DNA from: Clostridia bacterium
Lineage (GTDB): Bacteria > Bacillota > Clostridia > UMGS1883
Direction of reading: 5' to 3'
Assembly (NCBI GenBank): GCA_017411435.1
Contig: JAFQQD010000036.1
Location: forward strand, 2,938 to 66,937
DNA: 64,000 nt
Part shown: positions 6,230-29,487 of the stretch, one piece after another
Position numbering within the stretch: position 1 is the first letter of the stretch
Layout of the letters: the number at the start of each line of letters is the position of its first letter
Program-made: the position numbers and the translations under genes
Notes under the pieces: generated by a model
Databases searched by the model: none
The model's input: the letters and a program-made list of their open reading frames with translations, nothing else
What the model was told of the DNA's origin: nothing

Positions 6230-6308
6230 AAAGCGTGCCGCTTCACCCCTTTCGCGTTTAGCCTGATTTAATCAAGCAAACACTACTTGCGAAAAAACAT
6301 TCGAATCC
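6230..6308 (+). repeat. Interspersed intergenic repeat, copy B.
   Basis: The core is aaagcgtgccgcttcacccctttcgcg...cttgcgaaaaaac. It matches the elements at 358, 7801 and 14921. Confidence 0.65.
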
Positions 6309-6319
6309 TTTTAAGGAAT

Positions 6320-6357
6320 AAATCTCCGTACATATAAAGTGCGGAGATTTATTTTTT
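6320..6357 (+). terminator. Rho-independent terminator for glyA.
   Basis: Stem aaatctccg, a 13-nt loop, stem cggagattt, then attttttat. Confidence 0.6.
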
Positions 6358-6596
6358 ATGAAATGCTGAAATCGTCAGCCGTAGTAGGCTGATAAGTTCA
6401 GATGCAGAATTATCAAACTGAGTCTACAAGGTGTACGAGGTACTCCGTGGACGAAGTTTGATAATAGTTTGTCGATACAAAAAAAGAAATCCAACGGATT
6501 TCTACCGACAGTTTTTCTTGTCGCCTTGCAATAATACAAATAACAACTTATTCAGACAAATGCTCTGCGCTGAAATCGTCAGCCGAAAAAGAAAAA

Positions 6597-6622
6597 GGTA
6601 CGGAATTTTCTCCGTACCTTTT
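6597..6622. terminator. Bidirectional terminator that ends minus-strand module 1.
   Basis: Stem ggtacgga, loop attttc, stem tccgtacc. On the minus strand it is followed by tttttcttttt. Confidence 0.65.
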
Positions 6623-6646
6623 ATTAGCTCTGAATAGTCTGACCGA

Positions 6647-6826
6647 TTACCAAGACCATGAGGTCTGCATCTCATCGATTGAGTCTGCAATTGTCTGTAC
6701 GCTTGCCTGCTGGAAATTAACCTGAGCGTACTTAGCAGCAACATCCTGAGGTGCGCTTGTTTCGATTACATCAACTGTGTCAAGAGCTAATGTAACGATT
6801 TCGGGTGTGTTATACTTTTTCATCAT
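6647..6826 (-). CDS. 59-aa acidic, Cys-free small protein, copy 1. It is below the ORF-track size cutoff.
   Basis: It starts ATGATG with a GGAGG site 7 nt upstream and lies 17 nt after the stop of the 259-aa gene. The product is MMKKYNTPEIVTLALDTVDVIETSAPQDVAAKYAQVNFQQASVQTIADSIDEMQTSWSW. Confidence 0.6.
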   Translation of the reverse strand: MMKKYNTPEIVTLALDTVDVIETSAPQDVAAKYAQVNFQQASVQTIADSIDEMQTSWSW

Positions 6827-6843
6827 TAATTACCTCCTGAAAA

Positions 6844-7623
6844 TTATTTTTCAATTTTGTCGCCTTTGATTTCTTCAAGCAAATCGCCTTCAGCTGTGTG
6901 AACATCTTCACCCTTCAAAAGGAAAATAGCGTTCGCACCTTTTACAGTGTAACCTGTGCTTTCAAATGCTGCTGCGATTTCAACATCGCCTGTGAGAACT
7001 GTGCCAAGGCCGAGACCTGCAACATCACCTATTGAGTACTTAGTATCGTTCTTTTCGGGATCGCTATCTGCTTTGCTGTTGTCACTAACATGGAAAGCCC
7101 ACCACATCTGTGTAAGGTCGCCTGCTGCAACATTTGTTGCGTTGAGCTTAAGGTAAACAAGAGAACCCTTCGTACCGGGATTAGCTGTACTAACATTTCC
7201 CGCTTTATCGGTTACTTCTGTAATGTCATCGACAACCTGCGCAGTTACCAATGTAAGCTTAGTTTCCTGAACAATCGGGATGTCGTTGCCAACCTTAACT
7301 GCATTTACACCTTCATTAGAAGCGTAACCAGCGTAAATATCGATAGCCGTCACAGAAGCATCTGTGATTTCAGCTTCAAATAATGCTGTGTCTGAAGTTG
7401 CAGCCTTCTGGTCAACAAAAAGGATTGTATCAGTTGTGAAATCATAATCATTATCATGACTTGTGATGATAATTGCAACCTGTTCGCCCTTCGCAACATC
7501 TTCAACAGTAACCTGGACTTTCTTTGCCGAATAGTCGGTAACTTCAGCGGCAGCAAAAGCTACTGTCGAAAGAACGAGGCACATTACTGTGACAAAAGCG
7601 ATTGCTTTCATAAACTTTCTCAT
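6844..7623 (-). CDS. Secreted protein of unknown function, paralog 1. It has a Sec signal peptide and is rich in Thr, Val, Ala and Asp.
   Basis: The N terminus MRKFMKAIAFVTVMCLVLSTVAFA/AAEV has an AxA cleavage site. The ribosome-binding site is GGGGAGG. A strong promoter lies upstream. It is a paralog of the 8142..8864 gene. Confidence 0.8.
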   Translation of the reverse strand: MRKFMKAIAFVTVMCLVLSTVAFAAAEVTDYSAKKVQVTVEDVAKGEQVAIIITSHDNDYDFTTDTILFVDQKAATSDTALFEAEITDASVTAIDIYAGYASNEGVNAVKVGNDIPIVQETKLTLVTAQVVDDITEVTDKAGNVSTANPGTKGSLVYLKLNATNVAAGDLTQMWWAFHVSDNSKADSDPEKNDTKYSIGDVAGLGLGTVLTGDVEIAAAFESTGYTVKGANAIFLLKGEDVHTAEGDLLEEIKGDKIEK

Positions 7624-7718
7624 TTAGTTTTCCTCCCCTTATGTAATATCTTAAATTTTATTCACAGAATATTATATATGTATAAATGTTACTTCCCCAT
7701 TATTTATGCATATATAAT

Positions 7719-7747
7719 ATTATACTATAAACTCAAAGTGATTGCAA
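7719..7747 (-). promoter_or_regulatory. Strong sigma-A promoter for module 1.
   Basis: Read on the minus strand it is TTGCAA, a 17-nt spacer, then TATAAT. An aaaacacttg box lies upstream and is shared with the module 2 promoter. Confidence 0.6.
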
Positions 7748-7800
7748 GTGTTTTCTTGAATTAGCAGAACATATTTTTAATTCAAATGCAGAGAAATAAA

Positions 7801-7872
7801 AAAAGAAGCTCCGCTTCACCCATTTCTCGTTCCAGCTGAATTTCAAACTGACAAATGTAGCTTGCGCGAAAC
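7801..7872 (+). repeat. Interspersed intergenic repeat, copy C.
   Basis: The sequence is aaagaagctccgcttcacccatttctcg...gacaaatgtagcttgcgcgaaac. Confidence 0.6.
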
Positions 7873-7893
7873 AGATTTCTACACAACAAAAAA

Positions 7894-7920
7894 GGCACAG
7901 AGAAAACCTCTGTACCTTTT
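7894..7920. terminator. Terminator that ends minus-strand module 2.
   Basis: Stem ggcacagag, a short loop, stem ctctgtacc. On the minus strand it is followed by ttttttgttgtg. Confidence 0.6.
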
Positions 7921-7944
7921 ATTAGCTCTGAATAATCTAACCGA

Positions 7945-8124
7945 TTACCAAGACCATGAGGTCTGCATCTCATCGATTGAGTCTGCAATTGTCTGTACGC
8001 TTGCCTGCTGGAAATTAACCTGAGCGTACTTAGCAGCAACATCCTGAGGTGCGCTTGTTTCGATTACATCAACTACATCAAGAGCTAATGTAACGATTTC
8101 GGGTGTGTTATACTTTTTCATCAT
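7945..8124 (-). CDS. 59-aa acidic small protein, copy 2. It differs from copy 1 by T17V.
   Basis: About 98% nucleotide identity with copy 1 over roughly 215 nt, from the terminator through the peptide ORF and the 17-nt spacer. The ribosome-binding site and ATGATG start are the same. Confidence 0.6.
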   Translation of the reverse strand: MMKKYNTPEIVTLALDVVDVIETSAPQDVAAKYAQVNFQQASVQTIADSIDEMQTSWSW

Positions 8125-8141
8125 TAATTACCTCCTGAAAA

Positions 8142-8864
8142 TTATTCTTTAACAAGTTCAACTTCTTCGCCATTTACGCTAAGAAGAACCTTTGCGCCTG
8201 TTACTGTGTAGCCTGTGCTATCAAGAGCTGCTGCGATTTCAACATCTCCTGTAAGAACACTACCAAGAGCAGCAACGATGTTTGCGTCTGCTGCAGCATA
8301 CTTTGTAGCTGTTGCTTTTGTATCATCGTTCTCTACTTCGAATACCCAAGCCATACCTTCGATATCGCCTGCTGTAGCATTTGCAACACTAACCTTTAAG
8401 TAAACAACAGCGCCCTTTGTGTCGGGATCAACTGTGCTTGTTTCACCGTCAACTACAGCTTCTGTAATGTCGTTCTTAATCTGAACATCAGACAATGTGA
8501 TTGAGATTTCAACAGCTGCAGTAAGTTCAACATCGTTAGCAACCAAAACTGCACTTGAAAGAGCATTAGAAGCGAAACCAGCGTAAACATCAACTGTTTC
8601 TACATCTGCTGTAATAGCTGTGTTGAATACTGCTGTGCTAGTACCTGCTGCCTTCTGGTCCACGAAAAGGATGTTTTCTTTTGTGAAATTTGCGCCATCC
8701 CTTGTGATGATGATTGCAACCTGTTCACCCTTCTGAACACCTTCAACTGTAACAGCAACTGTCTTTGTTGCGTAGTCTGTAACTTCAACTGCTGCGAATG
8801 CTGCTGTTGAAAGAACTAAGCACATTACTGTTGCGAAAGCGATTGCTTTCATGAATTTTTTCAT
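8142..8864 (-). CDS. Secreted protein of unknown function, paralog 2.
   Basis: The signal peptide MKKFMKAIAFATVMCLVLSTAAFA/AVEV and the GGAGG site match paralog 1. It has the same architecture as 6844..7623 but the mature region has diverged. Confidence 0.8.
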   Translation of the reverse strand: MKKFMKAIAFATVMCLVLSTAAFAAVEVTDYATKTVAVTVEGVQKGEQVAIIITRDGANFTKENILFVDQKAAGTSTAVFNTAITADVETVDVYAGFASNALSSAVLVANDVELTAAVEISITLSDVQIKNDITEAVVDGETSTVDPDTKGAVVYLKVSVANATAGDIEGMAWVFEVENDDTKATATKYAAADANIVAALGSVLTGDVEIAAALDSTGYTVTGAKVLLSVNGEEVELVKE

Positions 8865-8964
8865 TTCGTTTTCCTCCTCTATAAAATAAAATTTAAATTA
8901 AATTAATTTACAAAAAATATGTACGCGAGGGTAAAACTCCCCCTACATCATTTATACATTTAGA

Positions 8965-8993
8965 ATTATACTCCAAACCGATAATAAATTCAA
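8965..8993 (-). promoter_or_regulatory. Strong sigma-A promoter for module 2.
   Basis: Read on the minus strand it is TTGAAT, a 17-nt spacer, then TATAAT, with the conserved upstream gaaaacacttg. Confidence 0.55.
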
Positions 8994-9142
8994 GTGTTTT
9001 CACTAAATTTGTTGTCTAATTTTTATCCAAATGTTGATATGCTTTTTTGTAAGTTTTGACGAAATATTTTTGTAATATTTTTGTTTTAGTTTTTTTCAGA
9101 CTGTTCACCACAATATATAGTGTGGGTTACGCTACAAGTACA

Positions 9143-9763
9143 TTATTTACAACGCACAATGAGTTCACCTTTCACGCCGTTTGGTGCATATGCCGAAACG
9201 ACAGCCTTACCCTTGCCAATTACCTGAAGGTTTCCGTCTTTGTCAACTCTGACAACATCTTTTTTATCACATTCCCACTCGATAGCATCCTTGGAATCTG
9301 AAGGGGTTATGTATGCAATAAGCTGATATGATTTTCCGGACGCAAGTGTTACATCATTCTTGCCGCCGGCACGCACACCAACAACAATTTCTGTAATATC
9401 CGACTTCTCATTACGAACGCGCACAAGGTTTCCGTCTTTATCAGTATAGTCACCATTTCCGTCAACAATTACGCCTACATGAACATACGCCTTTTCTCCG
9501 CGCGCAGTAACCGTTGTGATACCGTTTCCTACAGCAGAGACGGTTCCTTCCGGAGAAACTACCACAACAGATTCATCGTTACTTGACCATGTAAGGTCCT
9601 CTTCTTTTGTTTGCTTTACCTTTATAGTATAACTTTCGTCTTTTTTCATACGGACATGCTTTTCCTTTACGGATATGCTGTTTTCACTACTGCAGGAGCA
9701 TAATACTGCCACGAGCGTCATAACAGCAGCCAAAAAAATCAGCTTTTTCTTCATAAAATTCAT
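9143..9763 (-). CDS. Lipoprotein with two bacterial Ig-like (Big_2) domains.
   Basis: The signal peptide is MNFMKKKLIFLAAVMTLVAVLCSCSS, with a lipobox-like Cys. The Big_2 signatures are ITTVTARGEKAY and GKGKAVVSAYAPNGVKGEL. Confidence 0.7.
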   Translation of the reverse strand: MNFMKKKLIFLAAVMTLVAVLCSCSSENSISVKEKHVRMKKDESYTIKVKQTKEEDLTWSSNDESVVVVSPEGTVSAVGNGITTVTARGEKAYVHVGVIVDGNGDYTDKDGNLVRVRNEKSDITEIVVGVRAGGKNDVTLASGKSYQLIAYITPSDSKDAIEWECDKKDVVRVDKDGNLQVIGKGKAVVSAYAPNGVKGELIVRCK

Positions 9764-15056: not shown

Positions 15057-17858
15057 TTATTTTACGATATAAATAGCCTTTGCAGTGTTACTTACAGAAT
15101 CTGTCGAAATTACAATAATTTCGCTTGAGTTGCCAGCAGATATACTTATGTTATCGTACTTATAGTCTGTTTCTTCAAGGACAATATTTCCTTCTTCGTC
15201 AACTCTGTAAACATTTGTGCTGGAAGAAAGTTTGTATGTGAAGAGTTTTCCTTCTTCCTGCTTAGCAGCATCGTCATAAGATGAGCCCATTGCCTTAGTT
15301 ACACTCATTTGTGTAGTACCTATGATATCGAATGCTTCTGCATATCTGATTTTGAGTTCCCCAACATTTGATGTAACTGTGCTGAAGTACATATAGTCAT
15401 TATTGGGACCTGGTGAATAGAGCATGGAGTCAGCACTTGCATCGTAAACCATTTCGATAACAATTACACCTGTTGCATCTGTGATATAGCGGATGATATC
15501 GCCTTCTGATACATCTGCAAATTCTACAAGCGCATCGTCATCTGCAAATGATTTGAACTTATCCTCTGAAATAGTTACTGTATTTTTATTTGAAGTACCA
15601 TTTGCAAAACCTGTAATTTTCAAATTCGCTCTGTCAATATCTGTTACTACCATATAGGGAGATGTTGCAACAAAATCATATGCGGGGTCAACACCATAGA
15701 TAAGAACCATTGTAGGCTGTTTTGTTCTCTGTTCAGGATCTGCACCGAAGATTTTAACTTCACGGTCGCCTCCTCCTGCAAATGCCTTGGAAGGAGCCAT
15801 GATTGAGTATTCAGCGTCAGAAGTTCTGTTTTCAGGAACAAATATAACCATTGTGGATGATGAAACCTGATAAGCTGTTCCGCCTAACTTAACGCTGCTT
15901 CTGGTTGTAGCTGCTTCACCGCCGTCATTATAGATGAATGTATCATCACTATTTGAGCCGATTGCAGTTGCTTTTACATAGTTTCCGTCAGCATCTTTTT
16001 CTGCCTGTGCAGCGGTATCGATTGCTGCAAGCTCGCCGTCGTTAGTAATAATATATTTTACAGGCTGTGAGCATACTGCTTCTCCGTAAAGAGCCTGAGC
16101 AATTTCTTCAAGTTTTGCCTTTACATCATCATTATCAGTAGATACACCGTCAACTTTTACTTTACTCTTCATGGGAACAAATTCAAAAGTCTTGTCCTTC
16201 TTCATAAGGTTAACTGTATCTTTGTCTGCGTCAACGATATAACCAAGGTCATATTCGCTTGATGTTACGGGGTTGTAGTCAACTGCCGCAATCTGACCTG
16301 TGAAGTCAAGATAGTACTTGTAAGTGTCATTAAGCGCGAAAGGAGCCTTTCCGTTTCCTGAGAAGTCAGCATATTCATTAGTAAGGTAGTATTCTTTACT
16401 GTTGAGAATAACTTTTCTTACACTGTCAATAACTTCATTTACCTTGCCGTTGTATGACTTAGTTGTAACATACATCTTGCTTATGGGGTTACCGCCCACA
16501 CCTTCGGGAGATTCCATAAGATTAATAATATTGTAAGCACGAAGAGAAAGCGAGTCAAATTCTTTCTTTACGCCGTCAACATAAATGATGGGTTTCGCAT
16601 CTGTTGATGAGGGGAATGTGTAATAGCCGCCATCATACTTGAATGTAATCTTTCCTGAAGTTCTGTTGTAGCTGTCTACAGCATGAACTTCATAGCTTGT
16701 GACTTTAGCAAACTTCCTGCCTGATGTTTCAACAAGCTCAATCTTACCGTTTGTAAAGTTTGTATTGAAGTTTTCAATAATATCGCTGTTTGAAGGAATA
16801 TATTTTCCGTTATAGATAACAGTATAGTCTGAAAGAGAAAATGTTGAAATTTTCTTGTTTTCGTTATAGTACTTAACTATACCGTCCTCTACAGGACGAA
16901 TCAAAGAAGCCTCATCAATCAAAGTAATTTTGTTATTTGCCTTTGAAATGGATGTAAGCTGACGGTCAAGAGTATTGTAATACGCAGTTACGCCCTTACC
17001 GATAAGGTCTTCAAAATCAATGCTCTTTGCAAGTTCGGAAGAAAGCTCATAAGTTTCTTCGCCGTTTTCCACTGTTGTTATTTTGATTTCGTTAAGGCTG
17101 ATACCCGCATTTGTTGATTGAATGCCTGTATAGTAAGTACCTGAAACGATACCCTTTACTTCAACAACAGTCTTTTCTTCGTTTTCGCTTGAATCTCCCT
17201 TTTCAACTGTTCCGTCCTCATTCTGCTTAAGCGGAGGAACATCTAAAGCATTGCTTGTAAGAACTGCAACAACGCCTCTTGATGCAGGCTCGGAAATCTT
17301 AGCTGTAATTACACTCTTTGTAATACCGTGCTTGTTAGCTGCTGCGATGTAACCTGCAGACCATGTTGCACTGGGATTTGCAACAATAAGCTTGTTATAT
17401 TCGCTCTGTGCAACTATTTCATATCCAACTGCACAAACGAGCATTTTTACTGCCTGCTCATATGTAACAGGCTCACCTGCACGGAAAGTGCCGTCTTCAA
17501 AGCCGTTGATGATACCAAGATCAACTGCTGCTTTTACATAGGGGCGTGCCCATGCACGAGATTCATCGCTGTCAAGGTCAGAAAAGCCTGTTACTGCATC
17601 TGCGCCAAGCTCTCCTGCAACGCCCTTCATACGGGTTACAATAGCGGCAAATTCCGCTCTTGTGATCTGATTGTCCGGTCTGAAAGTACCGTCTTCATAG
17701 CCTGTGATGATGCCATTGGCAACAAGCTTGTTAACAGCCGTGTTAACCTTTTCATCTTCAATATCACTGAAATCCGCCGCAAATGTACTGATTGACATTG
17801 TTGATACAATCATTACAAAAGCAAGAATCAAAGTGACAATTCTTTTTGTTTTTTTCAT
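15057..17858 (-). CDS. Large surface protein with three N-terminal SLH domains.
   Basis: The signal peptide is MKKTKRIVTLILAFVMIVSTMSISTFA. SLH repeats include FSDIEDEKVNTAVNKLVANGIITGYEDGTFRPDNQITRAEFAAIV. The ribosome-binding site is GGAGAGG. The start was trimmed to aa 20 of the ORF-track call. Confidence 0.85.
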   Translation of the reverse strand: MKKTKRIVTLILAFVMIVSTMSISTFAADFSDIEDEKVNTAVNKLVANGIITGYEDGTFRPDNQITRAEFAAIVTRMKGVAGELGADAVTGFSDLDSDESRAWARPYVKAAVDLGIINGFEDGTFRAGEPVTYEQAVKMLVCAVGYEIVAQSEYNKLIVANPSATWSAGYIAAANKHGITKSVITAKISEPASRGVVAVLTSNALDVPPLKQNEDGTVEKGDSSENEEKTVVEVKGIVSGTYYTGIQSTNAGISLNEIKITTVENGEETYELSSELAKSIDFEDLIGKGVTAYYNTLDRQLTSISKANNKITLIDEASLIRPVEDGIVKYYNENKKISTFSLSDYTVIYNGKYIPSNSDIIENFNTNFTNGKIELVETSGRKFAKVTSYEVHAVDSYNRTSGKITFKYDGGYYTFPSSTDAKPIIYVDGVKKEFDSLSLRAYNIINLMESPEGVGGNPISKMYVTTKSYNGKVNEVIDSVRKVILNSKEYYLTNEYADFSGNGKAPFALNDTYKYYLDFTGQIAAVDYNPVTSSEYDLGYIVDADKDTVNLMKKDKTFEFVPMKSKVKVDGVSTDNDDVKAKLEEIAQALYGEAVCSQPVKYIITNDGELAAIDTAAQAEKDADGNYVKATAIGSNSDDTFIYNDGGEAATTRSSVKLGGTAYQVSSSTMVIFVPENRTSDAEYSIMAPSKAFAGGGDREVKIFGADPEQRTKQPTMVLIYGVDPAYDFVATSPYMVVTDIDRANLKITGFANGTSNKNTVTISEDKFKSFADDDALVEFADVSEGDIIRYITDATGVIVIEMVYDASADSMLYSPGPNNDYMYFSTVTSNVGELKIRYAEAFDIIGTTQMSVTKAMGSSYDDAAKQEEGKLFTYKLSSSTNVYRVDEEGNIVLEETDYKYDNISISAGNSSEIIVISTDSVSNTAKAIYIVK

Positions 17859-17963
17859 AATACCTCTCCTTTGCATCAGGCTTGAGGGTTGACCCTTAAG
17901 CCACGAACTGCACATATGTGCAATTATATTTTACATTGAAATTAATTTTAAGTCAATAGGTTA

Positions 17964-18776
17964 TTATTTTTTAATTGTGTAGTTTTTGGTTTTTCTGCGA
18001 TGTTTTTCCGAAAAATACGCCAAAGCGCAAATTCCTGCTATCACGCACACAAGCGCAATAATCTGCGAAACCCTCATCCCACCGATATAAAGGCTGTCTG
18101 AGCGCATTCCTTCGATAAAGAACCGTCCTACACCATACCACGACAGATAAGTAAAGAAAGTGTATCCGTAAAAAGGTCTTTTCTTATGAAGTTTCGACAA
18201 AATTATAAATCCCGCAAAATTCCACAGTGATTCATAAAGGAATGTAGGATGTACCGGGGCATTACCGTTTATACTCATCCCCCAGGGATAACTGCAGTAT
18301 CCGCCGTATGCTTCACAATTCACAAAATTTCCCCACCTGCCGATAAATTGTCCGATCATAAGTCCAAGACAGCAGATGTCAAAAATTTTAAGAACATTGA
18401 GTTTTTTTACCTTGCAGTAAATCCATGCAGTAAGGACTGCACCTATTACGGCACCGTAGATTGCAATTCCGCCTTCCCAGATTCTGAAAATGGAAGAAAG
18501 GTCATTTTTATAACTTTCCCACGAAAAAATAACATAATATGTACGGGCAAAAACAATTGACACGGGGAGCGCGTAGAGAACGATATCTGTTATCGTGTCA
18601 CTCTTCTCCCCTTCTTTTTTTGCAATATTACTGCAGTAGAGATACGCAAGAATTATTCCGCAGGCAATTATTATGCCATACCAGTGCACTCCGCCTAAAG
18701 GCGGGAAGCCAACTGCAACAGGGTCTATATCAAATGCTATATTAAGTTTGGGAAATGATATGTTATTCATGCTCAT
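17964..18776 (-). CDS. lgt: Prolipoprotein diacylglyceryl transferase.
   Basis: The 270-aa polytopic product has the Lgt signature GQFIGRWGNFVNCEAYGG. Confidence 0.9.
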   Translation of the reverse strand: MSMNNISFPKLNIAFDIDPVAVGFPPLGGVHWYGIIIACGIILAYLYCSNIAKKEGEKSDTITDIVLYALPVSIVFARTYYVIFSWESYKNDLSSIFRIWEGGIAIYGAVIGAVLTAWIYCKVKKLNVLKIFDICCLGLMIGQFIGRWGNFVNCEAYGGYCSYPWGMSINGNAPVHPTFLYESLWNFAGFIILSKLHKKRPFYGYTFFTYLSWYGVGRFFIEGMRSDSLYIGGMRVSQIIALVCVIAGICALAYFSEKHRRKTKNYTIKK

Positions 18777-18788
18777 ATTTCCTTTTAA

Positions 18789-20078
18789 TCATTTTTTAGG
18801 ATTGACAACGGAGAGAGAACACTGAGACTCTATAAAGAGCTCATTGAGTCTTTCCATTGCATCTTCTGCCGTAATCTCTTCACAAATGCGCGGATAATCA
18901 AAAAGATTTACCCCTTTATGGTATGACATCATATATTCGTTACCGAAACTTTCCACATGGTCAAGAATATCCAGGAACTGACCGCAGTAGACCTTTTTAG
19001 CTCTTTCAAACGCTTCTTTATCAAGGCCTTCTCTCTTTGCCTTTTCAAGTGTGGAAAAAATCTCTTTTTCAAGTTCTTTAATATGTTCGGATTCGCCGCA
19101 GAATGCCGCGTAACCGCAACTTTCCTCGTACTCATAAAAGGCACCGAAAGTGGAATTTATTATTCCCTCGTCATACAGTTTTTTGTAAAACTGACTGCTT
19201 TTACCGAAAAGAACCCTCAAAATTGTATTTGTAAGAATTTCTCTTCTTAAAAGTTCATCGCTCTTTCCGCCCTTTTTTACATCCTTGAAGCCCATCATAT
19301 ACATAGGCATGGGAATATCAAATTCCGCCTCAATATATCTCTTGTGCGCTTCTTTCTTCTCCTCGGGGAAAACCTGGGTGATTTCTCCGTGAGGAGCCGT
19401 GTTCTTTATGCATTTTTCCACATATTCTCCGATTTTATTTTCATCAAGGTCACCCACGCAGATAAGAGCCATATTTGACGGATGATAGAAGGTGTTATAG
19501 CACTTGTATAAAAGTTCGGGCGTGGTTTTCATTATTTCTTCCACAGTTCCCGCTATATTTATCCTTACGGGGTGTTTTTCGTACATTGCCTCGAAGCAGT
19601 TATACATGCAAGTCTGCTCTGCATCATCTTCGTACATTCTGATTTCCTGCGCGATAATCCCTTTTTCTTTTTCTACATTTTCCTCTGTAAAATAGGGGGT
19701 CTGCACAAAGTTTAAGAGAATCTCAAGATTTTCGTAGAAGTAGTCGGTACAACTGAAAAGATAGTTTGTAACACCAAAACTTGTAAAAGCATTGGCGTTT
19801 GCACCGTATTTCGAGAAATCGTTAAAGGCGTTTGTGCCGTCAGGCTGTTCGAAAACCTTGTGTTCAAGAAAATGCGCAATTCCGTCAATAACACTTGTAA
19901 CTTCCTTTTCGCCCGGAACTACAAACTGAGTGTTAATTGAGCCATACTTTGTGCTGAAAGTTGCATAGCTTTTCTTGAAACCTTCTTTTTTTATAAGGAT
20001 TACCCTAAGTCCGCTTTTGTGAGTGGCAGAATAAACTGTCTCTCCGAGTGTTTCGTAATGAGTTTTTATAAATTCCAT
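18789..20078 (-). CDS. M16-family zinc peptidase, catalytic subunit.
   Basis: The HxxEH motif HFLEHKVF is present. The ribosome-binding site is GGAGG. Confidence 0.85.
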   Translation of the reverse strand: MEFIKTHYETLGETVYSATHKSGLRVILIKKEGFKKSYATFSTKYGSINTQFVVPGEKEVTSVIDGIAHFLEHKVFEQPDGTNAFNDFSKYGANANAFTSFGVTNYLFSCTDYFYENLEILLNFVQTPYFTEENVEKEKGIIAQEIRMYEDDAEQTCMYNCFEAMYEKHPVRINIAGTVEEIMKTTPELLYKCYNTFYHPSNMALICVGDLDENKIGEYVEKCIKNTAPHGEITQVFPEEKKEAHKRYIEAEFDIPMPMYMMGFKDVKKGGKSDELLRREILTNTILRVLFGKSSQFYKKLYDEGIINSTFGAFYEYEESCGYAAFCGESEHIKELEKEIFSTLEKAKREGLDKEAFERAKKVYCGQFLDILDHVESFGNEYMMSYHKGVNLFDYPRICEEITAEDAMERLNELFIESQCSLSVVNPKK

Positions 20079-21347
20079 TTATTCTGCCTCCTTATCCATA
20101 TAATAAATCGTGTCAAGCTTCATTGATTTTGCCGCTTCTGTAATTTCTTCGCGCGTTACTTTTTCTATGCGCTGTGTCATTTCCTCGATAGAAATATTTG
20201 TACCAAGCAGAATCTGCATTGTGTAATATTCCGCCATTGCGCCGATACTGTCAAGGTTTGATTCATACGCTGTAACAAGGTATTTCTTTGCAAAATCAAT
20301 TTCTTCATCAGTAAATTCGCCTTTTTCCATCAGGGATTGCTGGTTCATAATTTCTTCCTCAGCAGTTTTGAATTTGTCAAATTCTACGCCGCTGCGTACA
20401 ACCATAATTTCCTTGAGGCGGTCAATACTGCTCCCTACATAGTAGCAAAGAGAGAGTTTTTCGCGCACATTGTTAAAGAGCTTGCTTACGGCACTTCCGC
20501 CAAAAATACAGTTATACACGGTGTATACAGGGTATTTTTCACGACCTGCTCCCTCTTTAGTTCGGAAACCCATACAAAGTTTACCTTGCGTTACATCAAG
20601 TCTGTCAGTTACTTTTTTAATTTCAGAAGGTGCGTCTCTGCGCGTTTCCTTTATATCAATTCCTTCTCTTTTGGGAAGGTTTTCGGCAAATCTTTTTGCT
20701 GTACTAAGAGCCTTATCCTCATCAAAATTTCCGCTGAATATTATGTCAATACGGCTTTCGGCAAGGATTTTCCTGTAGTGGCTGTAAAGCTCTTCCTCTG
20801 TTATTTTTTCGAGGTCTTCAATATATCCCATGGGATTTATTCCGTAGGGCTCGTCCTTACACATTTCTTCCTGGAGTCTCAAAACGCTGTATGCACGCTT
20901 GTCGTTTTTCTGCGCAAGAATTGCGTCTTTTATATTCTTTTTTTCAAGTTCTACAATACTTTCTGAAAATCCCTCACCCGTGCCGCTTAAGAACGCAAGG
21001 TCGTAAAGAAGGTTCATAGCACGGTCGAAATTTCCATCTTTTCCGAGTGCCTTATCGCTGACTGTTTCTATACCTATTTTAAGAATCTGCCTCTCGCCGT
21101 ATTTTGAGGCACGCGCTATCATTTCTCCACCGTAGAGATTTTCAAGCTCCTCTGAGATTTTTTGCGCATCGGGGAAATTTTTGCTCTGCATTCTTATTAC
21201 TGCCGATATAAGAGTATTAAGTGTTACCTCCTCGCGGAGATAAGGTCTGTGAATAAGTACAACGGCTCTGAACGACTTAAATTTTTTATCCTGCACTGTG
21301 TAAAGATTTACACCCTTTTTTATCTCGGTTTTAATCATAGGGTTCAT
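20079..21347 (-). CDS. M16-family peptidase partner without HxxEH, likely non-catalytic.
   Basis: It abuts the catalytic M16 gene. The start was placed at MNPMIKTEI, which has an AGGAAGGA site. Confidence 0.75.
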   Translation of the reverse strand: MNPMIKTEIKKGVNLYTVQDKKFKSFRAVVLIHRPYLREEVTLNTLISAVIRMQSKNFPDAQKISEELENLYGGEMIARASKYGERQILKIGIETVSDKALGKDGNFDRAMNLLYDLAFLSGTGEGFSESIVELEKKNIKDAILAQKNDKRAYSVLRLQEEMCKDEPYGINPMGYIEDLEKITEEELYSHYRKILAESRIDIIFSGNFDEDKALSTAKRFAENLPKREGIDIKETRRDAPSEIKKVTDRLDVTQGKLCMGFRTKEGAGREKYPVYTVYNCIFGGSAVSKLFNNVREKLSLCYYVGSSIDRLKEIMVVRSGVEFDKFKTAEEEIMNQQSLMEKGEFTDEEIDFAKKYLVTAYESNLDSIGAMAEYYTMQILLGTNISIEEMTQRIEKVTREEITEAAKSMKLDTIYYMDKEAE

Positions 21348-21394
21348 TCCTTCCTGTATGTATATACTCGTATGCAATATACGAGTATTTTTCT

Positions 21395-23132: not shown

Positions 23133-25027
23133 AGGTCCTCAAGCTCCATATTGAGCGATTCCCATTCTTCAAGCATGGTTTCGTGCTCACTTTCTTTTTC
23201 TTCAAGCATCTTGCTCAGCGCAGTTATTTTTTCAAAATCACTTCCTGCACTGTTAATTTCATCGTGGAGATTTGCAATTTCAGTTTCGGTAGTTTCAATA
23301 GATTCTTCAAGGCGCTTTATTTTACCCTCAAGCTTTCGTCTGTCGCTTTGAAGTTTCTTTTGCTTTTGATAATCGTTAGGCTCTTTTTTCGTCTTCGGGG
23401 CTTCGGCAGTCTCTTTAACCGCAGGGGCGATTTTATTTATATAATCGTCATAATTCATATTGTATGAATTTACACTGCCGTTTTCAAAAGCGAGAATTTT
23501 ATCTGCCATTTTGTTAATAAGATAACGGTCGTGGCTGATGATAAATATAGTACCCTCAAAATCTTCAAGAGCCGTTTCAAGCGCTTCTTTAGAACGGATA
23601 TCAAGATGGTTTGTCGGTTCGTCAAGAAGCAAAAAGTTTGCGCCCGTAAGCATTATCTGAAGTAGTGAAAGGCGCGCTTTTTCACCGCCTGAGAGTGTGT
23701 CTGTCATCTTGAACACATCGTCTCCGCGGAACAAAAATGCGGCAAGGGCATTTCGGATTTGTGTGCGGTCCATACGGGGATAGGCGTCCCAGAGTTCGCT
23801 TTCCACATCTTTTCCGCCCGTTATATCGCTTCGGTCCTGGTCATAGTACGCGCAGTCTACATTTGTGCCGAAGAAAACGCTGTTATCGGGGGTTGGAATA
23901 ACTCCTTTTATCATTTTGTAAAGGGTCGATTTTCCACATCCGTTAGGGCCGAGAAGAAATACTCGCTCCCCTCTTTTTATTTCAAAATTCACATCCGAAA
24001 AAAGTTTTTTACCCTCGTATTCTTTTCCGAGATTTGTAACTTTCAGAACATCGTTCCCGCTTTTTCGCGAGGCAGAAAAACGGAAATGGATTTTAGATGT
24101 ATCTTCCTCGGGTTTTTCAAGCGTTTCCTCGAGGCGGTCAATACTTTTCTGCTTATGCTCTGCGGTACGGATATTGCGTTCGCGGTTCCATCTTTTTTGT
24201 TGTTCGATGATGCCCTCGATACGCTTTATCTCCGCCATTGTATTATCGTATTTCCTTTGCATCGCGAGTTTTACCTGCTGCTTCTTTTCAAGGAAAGTTG
24301 AGTAAGAACCCGTGTAGCACGAAATTTTTCTCTGTTCAAGCTCAATAGTTGTATTCGTTACGCGGTCAAGGAAATATCTGTCATGGCTGATTACGATAAA
24401 CGCCTTGTTGGTATTTCGTAAAAAGTCTTCAAGGTATCTTACCGAGTCAATATCAAGGTGGTTTGTCGGCTCGTCAAGGAGCAGGAAATTCGCTTCGGAA
24501 AGAAGGGTGCGCGCAAGCGAAAGCCGTGTTTTCTGTCCGCCAGAAAGCGACGCCATGGGAAGGTTTATTTCCGTTTCTGAAAAGCCAAGACCAAGAAGCA
24601 TACTGCGTGTACGCGCGCGGTATGTAAGCCCTTCTCCTCGTATATATTCGGTATTTAACGCCTCCTGTCTGTTTATGAGGCGCGCGGTATCGCCCTCTCC
24701 CTTTTCAAGCGCAAGGCGTATTATTTCCATTTCTTTTTCTATTTCAAAAAAGCGAGAAAAAACCTCGAGCGTATAGTCATACGCGGTAAGGCTGTCGCTC
24801 GATGGGGGTGTCTGCTCCATGACACCGATACGAAGGTCGGATGATTTTATGATGTCGCCTGTATGGTCTTCTTCGCCAAGTATTGTGCGAAAAAGCGTTG
24901 TCTTACCGACACCGTTGGAGCCTATAAATCCCATCTTTGTAGTATTTTCAATGTTAAATGAGACATTTTCAAAAAGCACTCTTTCTCCAAAGCTTTTTGA
25001 AACTTCTTTAAGCATTAATAAACTCAT
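23129..25027 (-). CDS. ABC-F family ATPase with two ABC domains and a C-terminal coiled coil, and no transmembrane domain.
   Basis: Two sets of Walker A, signature and Walker B motifs are present: GSNGVGKTT, LSGGQKTR and LLLDEPTNHLD. The tail is rich in K and E. Confidence 0.85.
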   Translation of the reverse strand: MSLLMLKEVSKSFGERVLFENVSFNIENTTKMGFIGSNGVGKTTLFRTILGEEDHTGDIIKSSDLRIGVMEQTPPSSDSLTAYDYTLEVFSRFFEIEKEMEIIRLALEKGEGDTARLINRQEALNTEYIRGEGLTYRARTRSMLLGLGFSETEINLPMASLSGGQKTRLSLARTLLSEANFLLLDEPTNHLDIDSVRYLEDFLRNTNKAFIVISHDRYFLDRVTNTTIELEQRKISCYTGSYSTFLEKKQQVKLAMQRKYDNTMAEIKRIEGIIEQQKRWNRERNIRTAEHKQKSIDRLEETLEKPEEDTSKIHFRFSASRKSGNDVLKVTNLGKEYEGKKLFSDVNFEIKRGERVFLLGPNGCGKSTLYKMIKGVIPTPDNSVFFGTNVDCAYYDQDRSDITGGKDVESELWDAYPRMDRTQIRNALAAFLFRGDDVFKMTDTLSGGEKARLSLLQIMLTGANFLLLDEPTNHLDIRSKEALETALEDFEGTIFIISHDRYLINKMADKILAFENGSVNSYNMNYDDYINKIAPAVKETAEAPKTKKEPNDYQKQKKLQSDRRKLEGKIKRLEESIETTETEIANLHDEINSAGSDFEKITALSKMLEEKESEHETMLEEWESLNMELEDL

Positions 25028-26268
25028 TTGTTATCCTCTGTCCTGAACATTCCCAGTTTTTCTGCCATTTTAATTCGTCTTGTAATTATGTCATTTTCTT
25101 TTGTAGCTTTTTCGGTTTTTGCCGTTTCCTTGCCCGAAGTTTTAAGAATAATCTGTATAAATCTGTGCACCCAACCGATGGGGAGTAGTATAGGGTGTTT
25201 TTCCACATAGGAAAAGCGCTCCTTAATTGCTTTTGGAGACGGAAAAATTATCGATAAGAGACTGCGCTCGCTTCTGAAAAGGCGGTACACAAGGTAACTG
25301 AGCGTGCCCTTGCCAGATCTTCTTTTCGTATAGATGCTGAAAAACTGTGCGCGTTCTTTTTCATTTTTCGCGAAAACTCCGCCGATTTCACAGTCTTCTA
25401 AAAGCTCATCGATGCCACTTCCATCACAAATGGCGTCGTCAAATTCCATACCCCAATATTTTACACCTATTCCCTTTATAACACGGATAAGAGTGTCATA
25501 GCCGAGTTTTTTCATAAGAGAATTGTATCTTTCCCAATCTATTCCTTCTTTATATTCCTGCATATAAAGAAGAAGGTCCATCATCTGTCTTACGCCGGTG
25601 GCATCGTTTACAAGGTGCTTGATAAGATGCGCAGAAAGATAGATAAGGTTATCCTGTATGCCGAGGGTATATATGCCGCTCTCAAGACGGTAAAATTCTT
25701 CGTTATAGCGTATTTCGTCATCTAAAATTATGTCGTTTGTGGGTGCGGAATGAAGTGCAACATGCACCTCCATAAGTCCGCCTGTTTTATGATACGCCTT
25801 CATATGGTGGTCGTATTTCGAACGCTCTTCACAATCGTAGCCGAGGCCCGCGAGGATTTTCACTGCTTTTTCCTCATCGTTTGCATCAATCAATATATCC
25901 ATATCACTTGAAACGCGTGTTTCGGGCATAGCGTAAAGACGCGCGATAGTGATACCTTTGAGCACAGCACATTTTATTCCGTTTTCTTCGAGTTTACGAA
26001 GCGAAGAAAGGTTAAACTCAATTTTCTGAATATTGAGCGCAACATTTGAAAGAAAAGTCTTTTCAAGTCCAGTATAAATTTCGGGCGGAATTTTAACTTC
26101 CCCTCTTTCTATTTTGGGGCGCACTCCACTATACACGACATCCCACACTTCCTGCATAAGGGATAATTCGCGCACTTTACTTAAGTTTTTACAATATTGG
26201 GTTTTAACCTCTTTGCCTAGCGCTGATGCACCAAAGAGGAGAAGCATATTTGTAAAATCCTGTGTCAT
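25024..26268 (-). CDS. Uncharacterised nucleotidyltransferase-fold protein.
   Basis: A pol-beta-like motif reads GITIARL...RVSSDMDILID. Confidence 0.55.
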   Translation of the reverse strand: MTQDFTNMLLLFGASALGKEVKTQYCKNLSKVRELSLMQEVWDVVYSGVRPKIERGEVKIPPEIYTGLEKTFLSNVALNIQKIEFNLSSLRKLEENGIKCAVLKGITIARLYAMPETRVSSDMDILIDANDEEKAVKILAGLGYDCEERSKYDHHMKAYHKTGGLMEVHVALHSAPTNDIILDDEIRYNEEFYRLESGIYTLGIQDNLIYLSAHLIKHLVNDATGVRQMMDLLLYMQEYKEGIDWERYNSLMKKLGYDTLIRVIKGIGVKYWGMEFDDAICDGSGIDELLEDCEIGGVFAKNEKERAQFFSIYTKRRSGKGTLSYLVYRLFRSERSLLSIIFPSPKAIKERFSYVEKHPILLPIGWVHRFIQIILKTSGKETAKTEKATKENDIITRRIKMAEKLGMFRTEDNK

Positions 26269-27275
26269 TAGTTTTCTCCGTAATATTCAAAATACCATTT
26301 TGCAAATTTCTTAAGTCCGTCTTCAATTGAGGTAGACGGCTTGAAATCAAAATCACGCTGAAGGTCTGTTACATCGGCATAGGTCTGATAAACATCGCCC
26401 ATTTGCATGGGAAGATATTCCTTCTGTGCGGTTTTGCCGATTGCCTTTTCAAGAGTTTCGATAAAATACATAAGCTTTTCAGGGTTGTTGTTACCTATAT
26501 TGTAAACCTTTGCAGCGTCGCCGTTTTCATCAGGCGCAGGTGGATTTAAGAGCATATTCATAATTCCCTGCACAATGTCGTCAACATAGGTAAAGTCGCG
26601 GTACATATCACCGTTGTTGAAAATTTTGATTGTTTCGCCCTTCATAATTTTCTTCGTGAAAGAAAAATATGCCATATCAGGTCTGCCGTAAGGGCCGTAA
26701 ACAGTAAAGAAACGAAGTCCCGTAGAGGGGAACTTATAAAGGTGGCTATATGTAAATGCCATAAGTTCGTTTGATTTTTTGGTTGCTGCATAAAGACTTA
26801 TGGGGTGGTCAACATTGTCTGTAGTTGAAAAAGGAGTTTTTTTCTGATTTCCGTAAACGGAAGAACTTGAAGCATAAATAAGATGCTCTGTTTTGTGATG
26901 TCGGCACGCCTCTAAAATGTTATAAAATCCGATAATATTGCTTTCGATATAAGCATCGGGATTATCAATAGAATAGCGCACGCCTGCCTGTGCCGCAAGG
27001 TTTACAATAATGTCGGGGGAATATGTTTCAAAAATATTCCAGACAGCACTTTTATCTGCAAGGTTTCCCTTTATGAATGTAAATTTCTCGTATTTGTTAA
27101 GGATTTCAAGTCGGCTTTCTTTAAGAGATACCTCGTAGTAATCGTTAAGATTGTCAAAGCCGATTACCTCCCCACCTTCTTCAAGAATTCTTTTGGACAG
27201 ATGAAAGCCGATAAAGCCTGCCGCGCCTGTAACGAGTATTTTTTTGCTTCCGTCATATTTTGTAAAGTTCGCCAT
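26268..27275 (-). CDS. NAD-dependent nucleotide-sugar epimerase, UDP-glucuronate 4-epimerase-like.
   Basis: Motifs GAAGFIG and YxxxK are present. The start was moved to MANFTKYDGSKKILVTG, which has an AGGAG site. Confidence 0.7.
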   Translation of the reverse strand: MANFTKYDGSKKILVTGAAGFIGFHLSKRILEEGGEVIGFDNLNDYYEVSLKESRLEILNKYEKFTFIKGNLADKSAVWNIFETYSPDIIVNLAAQAGVRYSIDNPDAYIESNIIGFYNILEACRHHKTEHLIYASSSSVYGNQKKTPFSTTDNVDHPISLYAATKKSNELMAFTYSHLYKFPSTGLRFFTVYGPYGRPDMAYFSFTKKIMKGETIKIFNNGDMYRDFTYVDDIVQGIMNMLLNPPAPDENGDAAKVYNIGNNNPEKLMYFIETLEKAIGKTAQKEYLPMQMGDVYQTYADVTDLQRDFDFKPSTSIEDGLKKFAKWYFEYYGEN

Positions 27276-27298
27276 AACTATGCTCCTGTCTATTTTTA

Positions 27299-28429: not shown

Positions 28430-28458
28430 TTTTTCATTTTCCTTTTTTATTATTTATT

Positions 28459-29463: not shown

Positions 29464-29487
29464 AACATCACTTTCTTTCAGATTGTT

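Follow-up and report, generated by a model that had tools for sequence, protein, structure and literature searches.

A putative leader-bearing peptide gene paired with secreted-protein genes in uncultured gut Clostridia

Introduction

Why would a bacterium keep two nearly identical copies of a gene for a small acidic peptide, each directly behind the gene of a secreted protein, when the two secreted proteins have diverged from each other? This question is raised by a locus of a Clostridia bacterium, which we analyzed within a stretch of 64,000 nucleotides (64 kb; hereafter the window). A preliminary description of the letters had proposed that the peptide is either processed, like known signalling peptides, or serves the secreted protein as a dedicated partner. 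We found such a pairing in no curated family and in no paper, and the arrangement is apparently undescribed.

Results

The locus comprises two modules, A and B, each a two-gene operon in which a large secreted-protein ORF is followed by a small acidic ORF and a terminator. All four genes lie at the coordinates given in the preliminary description, on the minus strand, and have a Big_2 lipoprotein gene, dnaE, ispG and glyA as neighbours. Module A encodes a large paralog of 240 aa (8142..8864) and a small ORF of 59 aa (7945..8124), and module B a large paralog of 259 aa (6844..7623) and a small ORF of 59 aa (6647..6826), which differs from that of A only at residue 17 (T for V). Each small ORF starts with ATGATG behind a GGAGG sequence, 17 nt past the upstream stop codon. 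Thus, the modular layout first described, terminators included, is present in full, and the identity of about 50% given for the paralogs was measured as 53%.

A scan for terminator-like sites found seven, against 2.1 +/- 1.5 expected, and the two strongest (13-14 pairs) lie 3' of the small ORFs on the minus strand: a 14-pair stem followed by a T run in module A (7890..7920) and a 13-pair stem followed by a T run in module B (6593..6622). Promoter-like sites on the same strand precede the large genes of module A (8965..8993; TTGAAT, 17 nt spacer, TATAAT) and module B (7719..7747; TTGCAA, 17 nt spacer, TATAAT), with 10/12 matches each. The 17-nt spacer and TATAAT agree with the earlier promoter claim, whereas its "consensus -35" does not, since each -35 box has only 4/6 matches. 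The scan found eight promoter-like sites against 6.8 +/- 2.5 expected, so promoters as a class carry no significance, and these two are informative only through their homologous positions 5' of each large gene.

We then investigated the large proteins, which are predicted to be Sec-exported, acidic and very fast-evolving, with two beta-sandwich (Ig-like) domains. The signal peptide of paralog A, MKKFMKAIAFATVMCLVLSTAAFA/A, is of the Sec type by inspection (basic n-region, hydrophobic core, small residues at -3/-1). In the AF2 model (pLDDT 84), residues 1-19 are unstructured and two all-beta sandwich domains span residues 24-113 and 121-237. Paralog B has the same domain plan and a longer acidic C-terminal tail bearing VHTAEGD. 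Fold searches returned generic Ig/FN3-like matches only, and family and fold searches revealed no enzyme or toxin fold. In agreement with the initial reading, family searches found no known family for either product, large or small. A cohesin-dockerin pair was considered and rejected: neither a cohesin fold in the large protein nor Ca-binding dockerin repeats in its partner were found. In tapA-sipW-tasA operons, a secreted beta-rich matrix protein is accompanied by its own signal peptidase. The present loci are similar in having a secreted beta-rich protein of ~250 aa and, in related clusters, a SipW-type gene. However, the window modules have no peptidase gene close by, TasA operons lack a leader-type small ORF, and TasA is not among the top fold-search matches listed for the large protein.

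The product of small ORF A consists of leader-like residues 1-24 (MMKKYNTPEIVTLALDVVDVIETS) and a 35-aa acidic, amphipathic part, predicted to be helical, with a WSW end. It has a computed pI of 4.05 and a net charge of -5.5, with no Cys, no hydrophobic signal sequence and no transmembrane segment, which bears out its earlier portrayal as an acidic peptide without Cys or signal peptide. For the isolated peptide, AF2 gave a poor model (pLDDT 61). We collected 90, and then 464, homologs of 56-66 aa in which frame and length are conserved, and W-x-W forms the C-terminal end in 142 of the 144 relatives listed. A chance ORF is not expected to look like this: more than 460 homologs keep frame, length and C-terminal WxW. 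Frame conservation at related loci had been named as a test of the small ORF, and the comparison indicates a genuine gene under protein-level constraint; neither of the outcomes that the preliminary description had named as refuting it was observed. The tail had been described as SWSW, or likened to a WW motif; the conserved element is instead W-x-W at the free C-terminus, and the codon for x varies among relatives. Residues 1-24 are nearly invariant and the middle is variable, residues 25-55 having only 20-35% identity between genomes whose GlyA proteins are 95% identical. In remote relatives, the peptide motif is preserved although the codons differ.

The 5' part of the small ORF also appears to be under nucleotide-level constraint, with frozen synonymous sites: codon identity is 0.94 over the first 24 codons and 0.48-0.64 elsewhere (0.64 for glyA). 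RNAalifold predicts a hairpin sequestering the Shine-Dalgarno site of small ORF A (8078..8138, minus strand), in which the 5' arm UCAGGAGGUAAU (8127..8138) pairs with AUUAGCUCUUGA (8078..8089, codons 12-16). The corresponding hairpin of small ORF B (6780..6840, minus strand) has its arms at 6829..6840 and 6780..6791. Pair counts across the alignment show 98.3% of cells paired, and compensatory changes occur at four pairs, all in the single sequence L032. Such a conserved hairpin suggests translational coupling within the operon: the locked Shine-Dalgarno site of the peptide gene would become accessible when ribosomes completing the large gene unfold the hairpin, and both products would be made in a fixed ratio.

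These observations raise the alternative that the element is mainly an RNA, a structured mRNA end that stabilizes or regulates the transcript, with an incidental reading frame. The frozen synonymous sites, the conserved hairpins and a near-identity of the two copies that reaches the spacer and the terminator would all fit it. We consider it extremely unlikely, for frame, length and the WxW-stop are retained in more than 460 sequences despite the divergent middle, the codon for x is free to vary, remote relatives preserve the peptide motif in other nucleotides, and the conserved 3' block has no Rfam match.

The near-identical block itself spans -21 to +213 relative to the small-ORF start, with five mismatches in 234 nt (97.9%), and runs from the large-gene stop codon to the first terminator arm (copy A, 7912..8145; copy B, 6614..6847; no strand assigned; repeat D1, 97% between the copies). 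Three of the mismatches fall inside the ORF (GAT GTA versus GAC ACA, one synonymous change and a two-base V17/T17 codon change), and two between the small-ORF stop codon and the terminator. Past the block, the terminator loops and distal arms differ between the modules, partly in a compensatory manner. The differences in this region exceed the "two in the terminator" of the preliminary count. In the five genomes with both modules, each small ORF resembles its counterpart in the same genome most closely (91-99% at the nucleotide level), with shared genome-specific substitutions, whereas the large paralogs group as orthologs across genomes. This pattern indicates gene conversion over ~234 nt, as had been suspected, and the codon identities support the nucleotide-level constraint offered as its alternative in addition. 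The module duplication would predate the divergence of these species; the large genes would then have diverged, while gene conversion would keep the peptide genes interchangeable.

Next, we examined the association of the small ORF with secreted proteins. Each of the 46 near-family copies is separated by 13-21 nt from a secreted-protein gene upstream of it, in favour of the earlier idea of a dedicated partner, and by these comparisons the pairing recurs across uncultured gut Clostridia. For every copy, the upstream protein ends in the C-terminal beta-sandwich domain, whatever precedes that domain: L028 (1122 aa, with two GDSL esterase domains), L032 (512 aa), L029b and L030b have only this domain in common with the window proteins. 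L029a and L030a combine domain 1 with a dockerin, and the small ORF directly follows neither. The tail class of the small ORF tracks the class of the upstream C-terminal domain. Between paralogs, this domain is no better conserved than domain 1, and the identities therefore reveal no shared binding surface. The small-ORF tail is mimicked by the last 13 aa of an exported lipoprotein in L042 and L049, which suggests that the peptide acts outside the cell.

Two other kinds of protein partner have to be weighed here. Small acidic cytoplasmic proteins encoded right behind a secreted protein are typical of toxin-immunity pairs, and the adjacency observed fits a protein that neutralizes the secreted protein's activity inside the producer, as barstar and colicin immunity proteins do. 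We regard this as very improbable. The large protein is made of two Ig-like sandwiches and no enzyme or toxin fold was detected in it; immunity proteins co-diverge with their toxins, whereas here the peptide is homogenized between paralogs that are 53% identical; and the small-ORF N-terminus stays invariant across different upstream C-terminal domains.

The other is a cytoplasmic escort, or chaperone. It would bind the nascent C-terminal domain and keep it export-competent, or block premature self-assembly, until Sec translocation, with its invariant N-terminus docking on a common cellular component, in the manner of flagellar, type III or LXG-Lap systems. Flagellar FliS and FlgN, type III class I chaperones and the Lap partners of LXG toxins are encoded beside their cargo. 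Like them, the small ORF is small, acidic and helical, adjoins the cargo gene and is tied to the C-terminal region of the cargo. The peptide's lack of a signal peptide or transmembrane segment, its invariable position directly 3' of the presumed client with a hairpin suggestive of coupled translation, the use of a single peptide sequence for two diverged paralogs and the failure to find maturation or export genes nearby all argue for such an escort. On the other hand, those chaperones are folded proteins of 100-150 aa with no link to PqqD-type genes, and their cargos use dedicated secretion machines and lack Sec signal peptides; we know of no Sec substrates with such dedicated chaperones in Firmicutes. 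An escort leaves unexplained both the same tail on an exported lipoprotein and the PqqD, kinase-like, nucleotidyltransferase and peptidase neighbours of distant relatives, and the tails of remote relatives (7-25 residues) are too short for a folded chaperone. We hold the escort to be a serious though rather doubtful explanation.

The N-terminus recalls precursor peptides. Residues 1-24 resemble clostridial lasso-peptide leaders (K-Y-N-x-P-E-I ... E-T-S). In the small-ORF family Y5-x-x-P8-x-I10 is invariant, corresponding to -20 to -15 if cleavage follows Ser24, and 23 of 28 unique sequences have T23-S24 ahead of the variable part, the cleavage site being assumed. Published rumen lasso precursors show a MKAWNTPVIETLEINETAA/GG... 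pattern (PMC7533575), and the lasso leader rule is YxxPxL at -17 to -12 with Thr at the penultimate position, -2 (PMC10368454). The near-family profile gives only 0-6 bits against real lasso precursors, so the likeness is a resemblance and no proof of homology. The small-ORF family does have the combination of conserved leader and variable core that is generic to RRE-dependent RiPP precursors.

The closest comparison is with lasso precursors such as paeninodin, pseudomycoidin and those predicted in Butyrivibrio and Lachnospira, which belong to Firmicutes split B1/B2 clusters with an HPr-kinase-like enzyme and a nucleotidyltransferase. The small ORF resembles them in its N-terminal pattern M-K-x-[W/Y]-N-x-P-x-[I/L]-x-x-L ... 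E-T-x, with Thr at -2 if cleavage follows Ser24, and its distant relatives likewise adjoin PqqD-family, HprK-like and NTP_transf_5 genes. However, the leader would be 3-4 residues longer (Y -20, P -17 and I -15 versus -17, -14 and -12), and the 35-aa core is predicted to be helical and its gene to be coupled to that of a secreted protein. Lasso cores start with Gly, Ala, Ser or Cys and close a macrolactam ring through Asp or Glu at position 7, 8 or 9; in the window the core reads APQDVAAKY, without Asp/Glu at positions 7-9, and the cores of relatives are inconsistent at the ring positions (some have E8 or D7, many neither). A signal-peptidase-I-like gene stands in for B2 in related clusters. 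No lasso cyclase (Asn-synthetase-like) or B2 protease was present among the Pfam families of the tested ORFs (~15-50 kb of the window) or among the genes listed ~10 kb past each window end, and none was noted among the ORFs of related clusters. In prochlorosin- and Nif11-type RiPPs, one conserved leader serves many cores and precursors are scattered from the enzyme genes. The small ORFs are similar in their hyperconserved leader, variable remainder, several precursor genes per genome and location away from maturation genes, but have no sequence relation to these RiPPs, are tied to a secreted protein and are homogenized instead of diversified.

A motif derived from the near family was used to gather a wide family from metagenomes, where small ORFs of the form M.KYxxPEI(8 aa)DVITTS occurred at 26 loci. 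Upstream sequence was usable for 22 of these, and in 20 of the 22 the small ORF lies behind the gene of a large secreted surface protein with SpaA repeats, Listeria-Bacteroides repeats, dockerin, lectin or F5/8-C domains. Maturation-type genes lie beside or near 5 of the 26 loci. L041, L049 and L054 have PqqD, HprK/ScmC-like and S26-like genes, with NTP_transf_5 also in L049 and L054; L045 has PqqD alone; L066 has NTP_transf_5, HprK-like and S26-like genes, and PqqD was not detected there. L067, found independently with the near-family profile, has the order large protein, small ORF, ScmC, PqqD. A PqqD-like recognition protein together with modifying enzymes is thus complete only in the distant L041, L049, L054 and L067. 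The best hits of the cluster PqqD-family protein, below threshold, are lasso B1 chaperones, and the peptidase-like gene of related clusters is of the SipW/archaeal type. PqqD, HprK/ScmC-like and S26-like genes are absent from the window and 10 kb on either side (~84 kb), and from +/-8 kb around the 46 near-family copies. The sole NTP_transf_5 gene of the window (25024..26268) ends a polysaccharide operon and shares 24% identity with those of the clusters. We found neither an export signal in the peptide nor an exporter for it.

The idea of a processed peptide is therefore strengthened by the RiPP-like leader and the PqqD-adjacent distant relatives, while its analogies to ComX and XIP/ComS are not supported: no ComQ-type prenyltransferase, Rgg or RRNPP regulator is found nearby. 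Like ComX and XIP/SHP precursors, the small ORF product is short and acidic, lacks a Sec signal and has Trp near the C-terminus; unlike them, it has a free W-x-W end and a 24-residue invariant N-terminus. ComQ/ComP, Rgg or PptAB context was not seen among neighbouring genes in the window and its 10-kb extensions, and no regulator gene flanks the modules in any of the loci.

A free pheromone, exported as a quorum-sensing or kin cue and merely co-expressed with the surface gene without physical interaction, would still account for the leader and variable core design with its fast-evolving middle. In L041 and L054, two tandem precursors adjoin an AgrC-like GHKL kinase and a LytTR regulator, and an aromatic C-terminus is typical of peptide cues. 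Nevertheless, we judge a pheromone unlikely: the tail varies in class with the C-terminal domain of the upstream protein, such peptides seldom have a helical core as long as 35 aa, near-identical copies in one genome give no signal diversity, and a tblastn search of the window and the Pfam families listed for the genes in its 10-kb extensions revealed neither an AgrC/LytTR-type pair nor an RRNPP/Rgg receptor.

Discussion

The reading that we favour, with a probability of roughly 40%, is that the small ORF encodes a precursor-like peptide with a leader, made in a coupled two-gene operon as the partner of the secreted protein's C-terminal domain. Residues 1-24 would be a leader of the kind bound by PqqD-type RiPP recognition proteins, and the genes of the machinery that reads it would lie in another part of the genome. 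The peptide would be cut after Ser24, possibly be modified near its WxW end, leave the cell and act with the C-terminal domain as a ligand, an anchor or an assembly partner.

A broader proposal, which we put forward tentatively and consider rather doubtful, is an unrecognized two-part surface system of gut Clostridia in which a RiPP-like peptide is the extracellular partner of a class-specific C-terminal domain. A lasso-type leader would be read by PqqD, HprK-like and NTP_transf_5 enzymes may phosphorylate or glycosylate the peptide, and a signal-peptidase-like enzyme may cut it. The carriers would be otherwise unrelated secreted surface proteins without LPXTG, for which the peptide would act as an anchor, a key to assembly or an activating ligand. 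In this picture, the modules of the window would represent a duplicated and highly expressed form of the system that is specific to their lineage.

Gene conversion limited to a 234-nt tract is seen here in a clean natural case, and translational coupling by sequestration of the ribosome-binding site is likely. If the proposed partnership is true, leader-bearing peptides would be routinely paired 1:1 with surface proteins of abundant uncultured gut and rumen Clostridia, and would not arise solely from self-contained biosynthetic clusters. New families would comprise the small ORF, the C-terminal domain and the cyclase-less cluster of PqqD, kinase-like, nucleotidyltransferase and peptidase-like genes, and peptides with a WSW end, possibly with added mass, would be targets for metaproteomics. 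This would link RiPP biology with cell-surface biology, and might explain how the cell retains or activates large adhesin-like proteins that lack sortase motifs.

Two tandem modules with homogenized small ORFs

The preliminary description had placed two tandem modules here, and this arrangement was confirmed; all four genes and both terminators lie on the minus strand. Module A consists of a large gene (8142..8864, 240 aa), a small ORF (7945..8124, 59 aa) and a terminator (7890..7920), and module B of a large gene (6844..7623, 259 aa), a small ORF (6647..6826, 59 aa) and a terminator (6593..6622). A GGAGG site precedes each large gene, as does a promoter-like site with a perfect TATAAT and a 17-nt spacer. 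The -35 boxes had been described as consensus, but only four of six positions match (TTGAAT in A and TTGCAA in B). As a class, promoter-like sites are not more frequent than in shuffled sequence, and terminator-like sites are commoner than in shuffles. Both small ORFs start with ATGATG, 17 nt past the stop codon of the upstream gene. The small peptide has a pI of 4.05, is free of Cys and carries no hydrophobic signal; the mature large proteins are likewise acidic and without Cys.

A near-identical block (7912..8145 and 6614..6847, with 5 mismatches in 234 nt) extends from the large-gene stop codon to the first terminator arm. Beyond it, the DNA of the two modules is about 65% identical, and the large proteins are 53% identical. 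The two-module arrangement occupies the same syntenic place in several genomes, within the shared gene order SLH protein, ispG, dnaE, Big_2 lipoprotein, modules, glyA, tsf and rpsB, and more distant relatives have a single module there. The large proteins cluster by ortholog in five two-module genomes (A-A and B-B 56-81% identical, A-B 44-54%), so the module duplicated long ago. Within each genome, however, the small ORFs are mutually closest, with 98, 91, 96, 94 and 99% nucleotide identity within the respective genomes versus 81-95% between genomes, and genome-specific substitutions are common to both. These comparisons show gene conversion, confined to the small ORF and its immediate flanks, and the earlier proposal of such conversion is thereby upheld.

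Several other features surround the modules. A 32-nt stretch at 6238..6269 is 78% identical to 7811..7842, which suggests that the downstream flank of the ancestral module was copied together with it. The interval between module B and glyA has GCTGAAATCGTCAGCCG as an exact direct repeat of 17 nt (6365..6381 and 6569..6585). The 187 nt bracketed by this pair contain short unsupported ORFs only and a terminator-like hairpin (6485..6503), without an Rfam match, and an Rfam search of 6300..9300 found nothing. Where related loci extend far enough upstream, most have the Big_2 lipoprotein (9143..9763, minus strand, 206 aa, signal end LCSC) as a conserved upstream neighbor of the module. The region 15057..21377 (minus strand), upstream of ispG and dnaE, encodes a 952-aa SLH-domain protein, which is found in related loci too, together with lgt and an M16 peptidase pair.

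The small ORF is constrained at the protein and RNA levels

Database searches yielded 90 and then 464 relatives of the small ORF, every one 56-66 aa long; their sources are all uncultured gut Clostridia or Oscillospiraceae of animals and humans. The ORF is a genuine and conserved gene. Residues 1-24, MMKKYN[K/T]PEIVTLALDxVDVIETS, are near-invariant, and residues 25-55 vary in sequence and length. The C-terminal end is W-x-W directly before the stop codon (x being S, T, Q, H, N or A) in 142 of the 144 listed relatives. The family is narrow, since an exhaustive profile search against 1.84 billion representative proteins returned only 35 representatives. Sequence and profile searches of Pfam, NCBIfam, PHROGs and PDB found no relative. 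An AF2 model of the peptide alone has three low-confidence helices (pLDDT 61). The ankyrin-repeat consensus YNKPEVVALLLDRGADIE (protein P0236) scores against the small-ORF profile, and we judged this to be a chance resemblance between an amphipathic helix plus turn and the peptide. A frameshift or readthrough fusion of the small ORF to the large protein was rejected, because the frame relation varies (+2 in the window, in-frame in the related locus L002).

We compared codons between the window and 12 other loci at positions with an identical amino acid. The fraction of identical codons is 0.94 in small-ORF codons 1-24 and 0.61 in the rest of the small ORF, against 0.64 in glyA, 0.54 in the mature large protein and 0.48 in its signal peptide. 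Codons 1-24 are frozen at synonymous sites. The two Leu codons in this segment are fixed but differ from each other (TTA and CTT), which speaks against simple codon bias. A conserved hairpin (6780..6840 in B and 8078..8138 in A, minus strand) is supported by RNAalifold and pair counting; it pairs the Shine-Dalgarno region, UCAGGAGGUAAU, with AUUAGCUCUUGA in codons 12-16. Its positions are 98.3% paired, and the four pairs changed on both sides all come from one sequence, that of locus L032. A second, weaker alternative hairpin joins codons 10-12 with codons 19-22. The first arm of the Shine-Dalgarno hairpin comes a few bases after the large-gene stop codon, so that a terminating ribosome should open the hairpin; we infer that the small ORF is translationally coupled to the large gene. 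Remote relatives keep the KYxxPEI...DVIxTS motif with other codons, indicating a protein-level constraint independent of the RNA layer. That the locus serves mainly as an RNA element, as the frozen codons and the hairpin might lead one to suppose, is very improbable.

The peptide travels with the C-terminal domain of a secreted protein

The large-protein family has 73 members, none of them annotated; searches of Pfam, NCBIfam and PHROGs gave no family, and PDB profile searches found nothing. These proteins evolve very fast, with mature parts 35-40% identical between genomes where GlyA is about 95% identical. The best-conserved part is the signal peptide MKKFMKAIAFATVMCMLLSTAAFA (8790..8864 and 7549..7623, minus strand), and this conservation is at the protein level only, as its low codon identity indicates. 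Each of the 46 near-family copies of the small ORF (36 unique pairs) has a secreted-protein gene 13-21 nt upstream on the same strand. An immunity protein, a further role that could be considered for a small ORF in this position, is quite improbable.

The upstream proteins of divergent loci reveal which part of the large protein is paired with the peptide. That of locus L028 has 1122 aa with two GDSL esterase domains, and the proteins L032, L029b and L030b have 512, 315 and 299 aa. Only the C-terminal beta-sandwich, with the motifs KMiWaf, GdVxiAAAF and vDAIF, is common to these proteins and those of the window. L029 and L030 carry the first beta-sandwich (domain 1) and the invariant signal peptide on a separate protein (L029a and L030a), fused there to a dockerin, and this protein is not directly followed by a small ORF. 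As the divergent upstream proteins share the C-terminal domain only, the peptide travels with that domain rather than with domain 1 or the signal peptide. Binding of the peptide to the invariant signal peptide was rejected on the same grounds: this signal goes with domain 1, and the small ORF accompanies C-terminal domains that follow ordinary signal peptides. We also looked for an extra-conserved C-terminal domain in the paralogs as a binding surface and saw none, with identities of 0.32-0.57 in all parts.

Distant relatives and their maturation-type genes

The profile search also returned peptides of 32-47 aa that share the N-terminus and have short tails, acidic, Gly-rich or Pro-rich. We gathered this wide family by its motif; a metagenome scan for DNA encoding KY-xx-PEI-(8 aa)-DVITT gave 26 loci. 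Upstream sequence was usable at 22 of them, and at 20 of these the small ORF lies 2-58 nt after the gene for a large secreted surface protein. The surface proteins are up to 1891 aa long, with SpaA-fold repeats, Listeria-Bacteroides repeats, or an N-terminal dockerin together with a C-type lectin; F5/8 type C domains are present at the remote locus L039 and, judged by sequence similarity, at L043. All of the surface proteins lack an LPXTG motif. Their C-terminal regions are specific to each class, and the tails of the peptides vary from class to class. Another lineage (L044, 360..5560) has two tandem modules, with secreted proteins of 728 and 805 aa; behind each of these comes a small ORF of 49 aa that has the same leader and whose tail ends in W-S-x-L-[KY].

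Maturation-type genes are found at 5 of the 26 loci (L041, L049, L054, L045 and L066). L041, L049 and L054 encode a PqqD protein (PF05402, E down to 6e-13), an HprK/ScmC-like P-loop protein and a signal-peptidase-I-like protein, with NTP_transf_5 additionally in L049 and L054. L045 has PqqD only. At L066, NTP_transf_5, HprK-like and peptidase-like genes lie about 5 kb away, and PqqD was not detected there. L041 and L054 also encode an AgrC-like kinase and a LytTR regulator. At L067, which was reached independently via the near-family profile, the order is large protein, small ORF, ScmC and PqqD. In L054 (3337..9199) and L041, two tandem leader-type small ORFs stand beside the HprK/ScmC-like, PqqD and signal-peptidase-I-like genes in a cluster that lacks a cyclase. 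No protein of this cluster reaches the NCBIfam cut-off, and the cluster may be an undescribed RiPP class.

In L042 (3862..4500) and L049 (2775..3317), a low-complexity lipoprotein is encoded just upstream of the small ORF; in L049, the PqqD, NTP_transf_5, HprK-like and peptidase-like genes come next. The last 13 residues of the lipoprotein, DDGLNWSPLVPVE, almost match the tail of the following small ORF, DDGLDWSPLTPVN. Because of this mimicry, the site of action of the peptide is probably extracellular. A cytoplasmic escort or chaperone would suit the missing export signal and the coupling to the large gene. However, it is hard to reconcile with the lipoprotein mimic, the PqqD company of the relatives and their very short tails, and we regard it as doubtful.

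No maturation or export genes were found in the roughly 84 kb that span the window and 10 kb beyond either end, nor near any close relative. A free pheromone, released to act as a signal in its own right, is an unlikely identity for the peptide. The window also contains a ~30-kb surface-polysaccharide operon (25024..55314, minus strand) encoding a Wzx-type flippase, two Wzy-like proteins, GT2 and GT4 transferases, sugar-nucleotide enzymes, three ATP-grasp ligases, PGA_cap and two Acyl_transf_3 proteins. An NTP_transf_5 gene (25024..26268) ends this operon and belongs to the same Pfam family as the nucleotidyltransferase of the peptide clusters, at 24% identity. A place for it in the peptide system was set aside as unproven, given this low identity and its position inside a polysaccharide operon.

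Comparison with lasso peptides and proposed role

PqqD-family proteins are leader-recognition elements in RiPP pathways (PMC10368454, PMC7533575). Lasso leaders have YxxPxL at -17 to -12 and Thr at -2 (PMC10368454), and in Firmicutes and rumen Clostridia, lasso clusters frequently contain an HPr-kinase-like enzyme and a nucleotidyltransferase, which decorate the C-terminal region (PMC10368454, PMC7533575). Published rumen lasso precursors, such as MKAWNTPVIETLEINETAA followed by GG (PMC7533575), resemble the small-ORF N-terminus, MMKKYNTPEIVTLALDVVDVIETS followed by A. However, the small-ORF leader has a spacing longer by 3-4 residues, positions 7-9 of the window core lack a ring-forming acid, neither a cyclase nor a B2 protease is seen at any locus, and the near-family profile scores real lasso precursors only marginally. 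A true lasso peptide was rejected because of the missing ring acceptor and cyclase. The small ORF therefore resembles a leader-bearing precursor and is not a lasso peptide.

Literature searches with peptide strings and gene-combination keywords found no description. As far as the libraries and literature searched show, the small-ORF family, its partner C-terminal domain, the systematic pairing with secreted surface proteins, and the related cyclase-less cluster of PqqD, kinase-like, nucleotidyltransferase and peptidase-like genes are each undescribed so far. The preliminary idea of a processed peptide or a partner of the secreted protein is sharpened and is not settled. Our preferred reading, to which we give a probability of roughly 40%, is that the small ORF encodes a leader-bearing, precursor-like peptide, the putative cognate partner to the secreted protein's C-terminal domain. 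Points against this reading are the motif-based collection of the wide family and the negative search for maturation and export genes, both in the roughly 84 kb covered and near close relatives. Under it, translation of the small ORF would be coupled to that of the large gene, a PqqD-type system with its genes elsewhere in the genome would recognize the leader, and the peptide would act with this C-terminal domain outside the cell.
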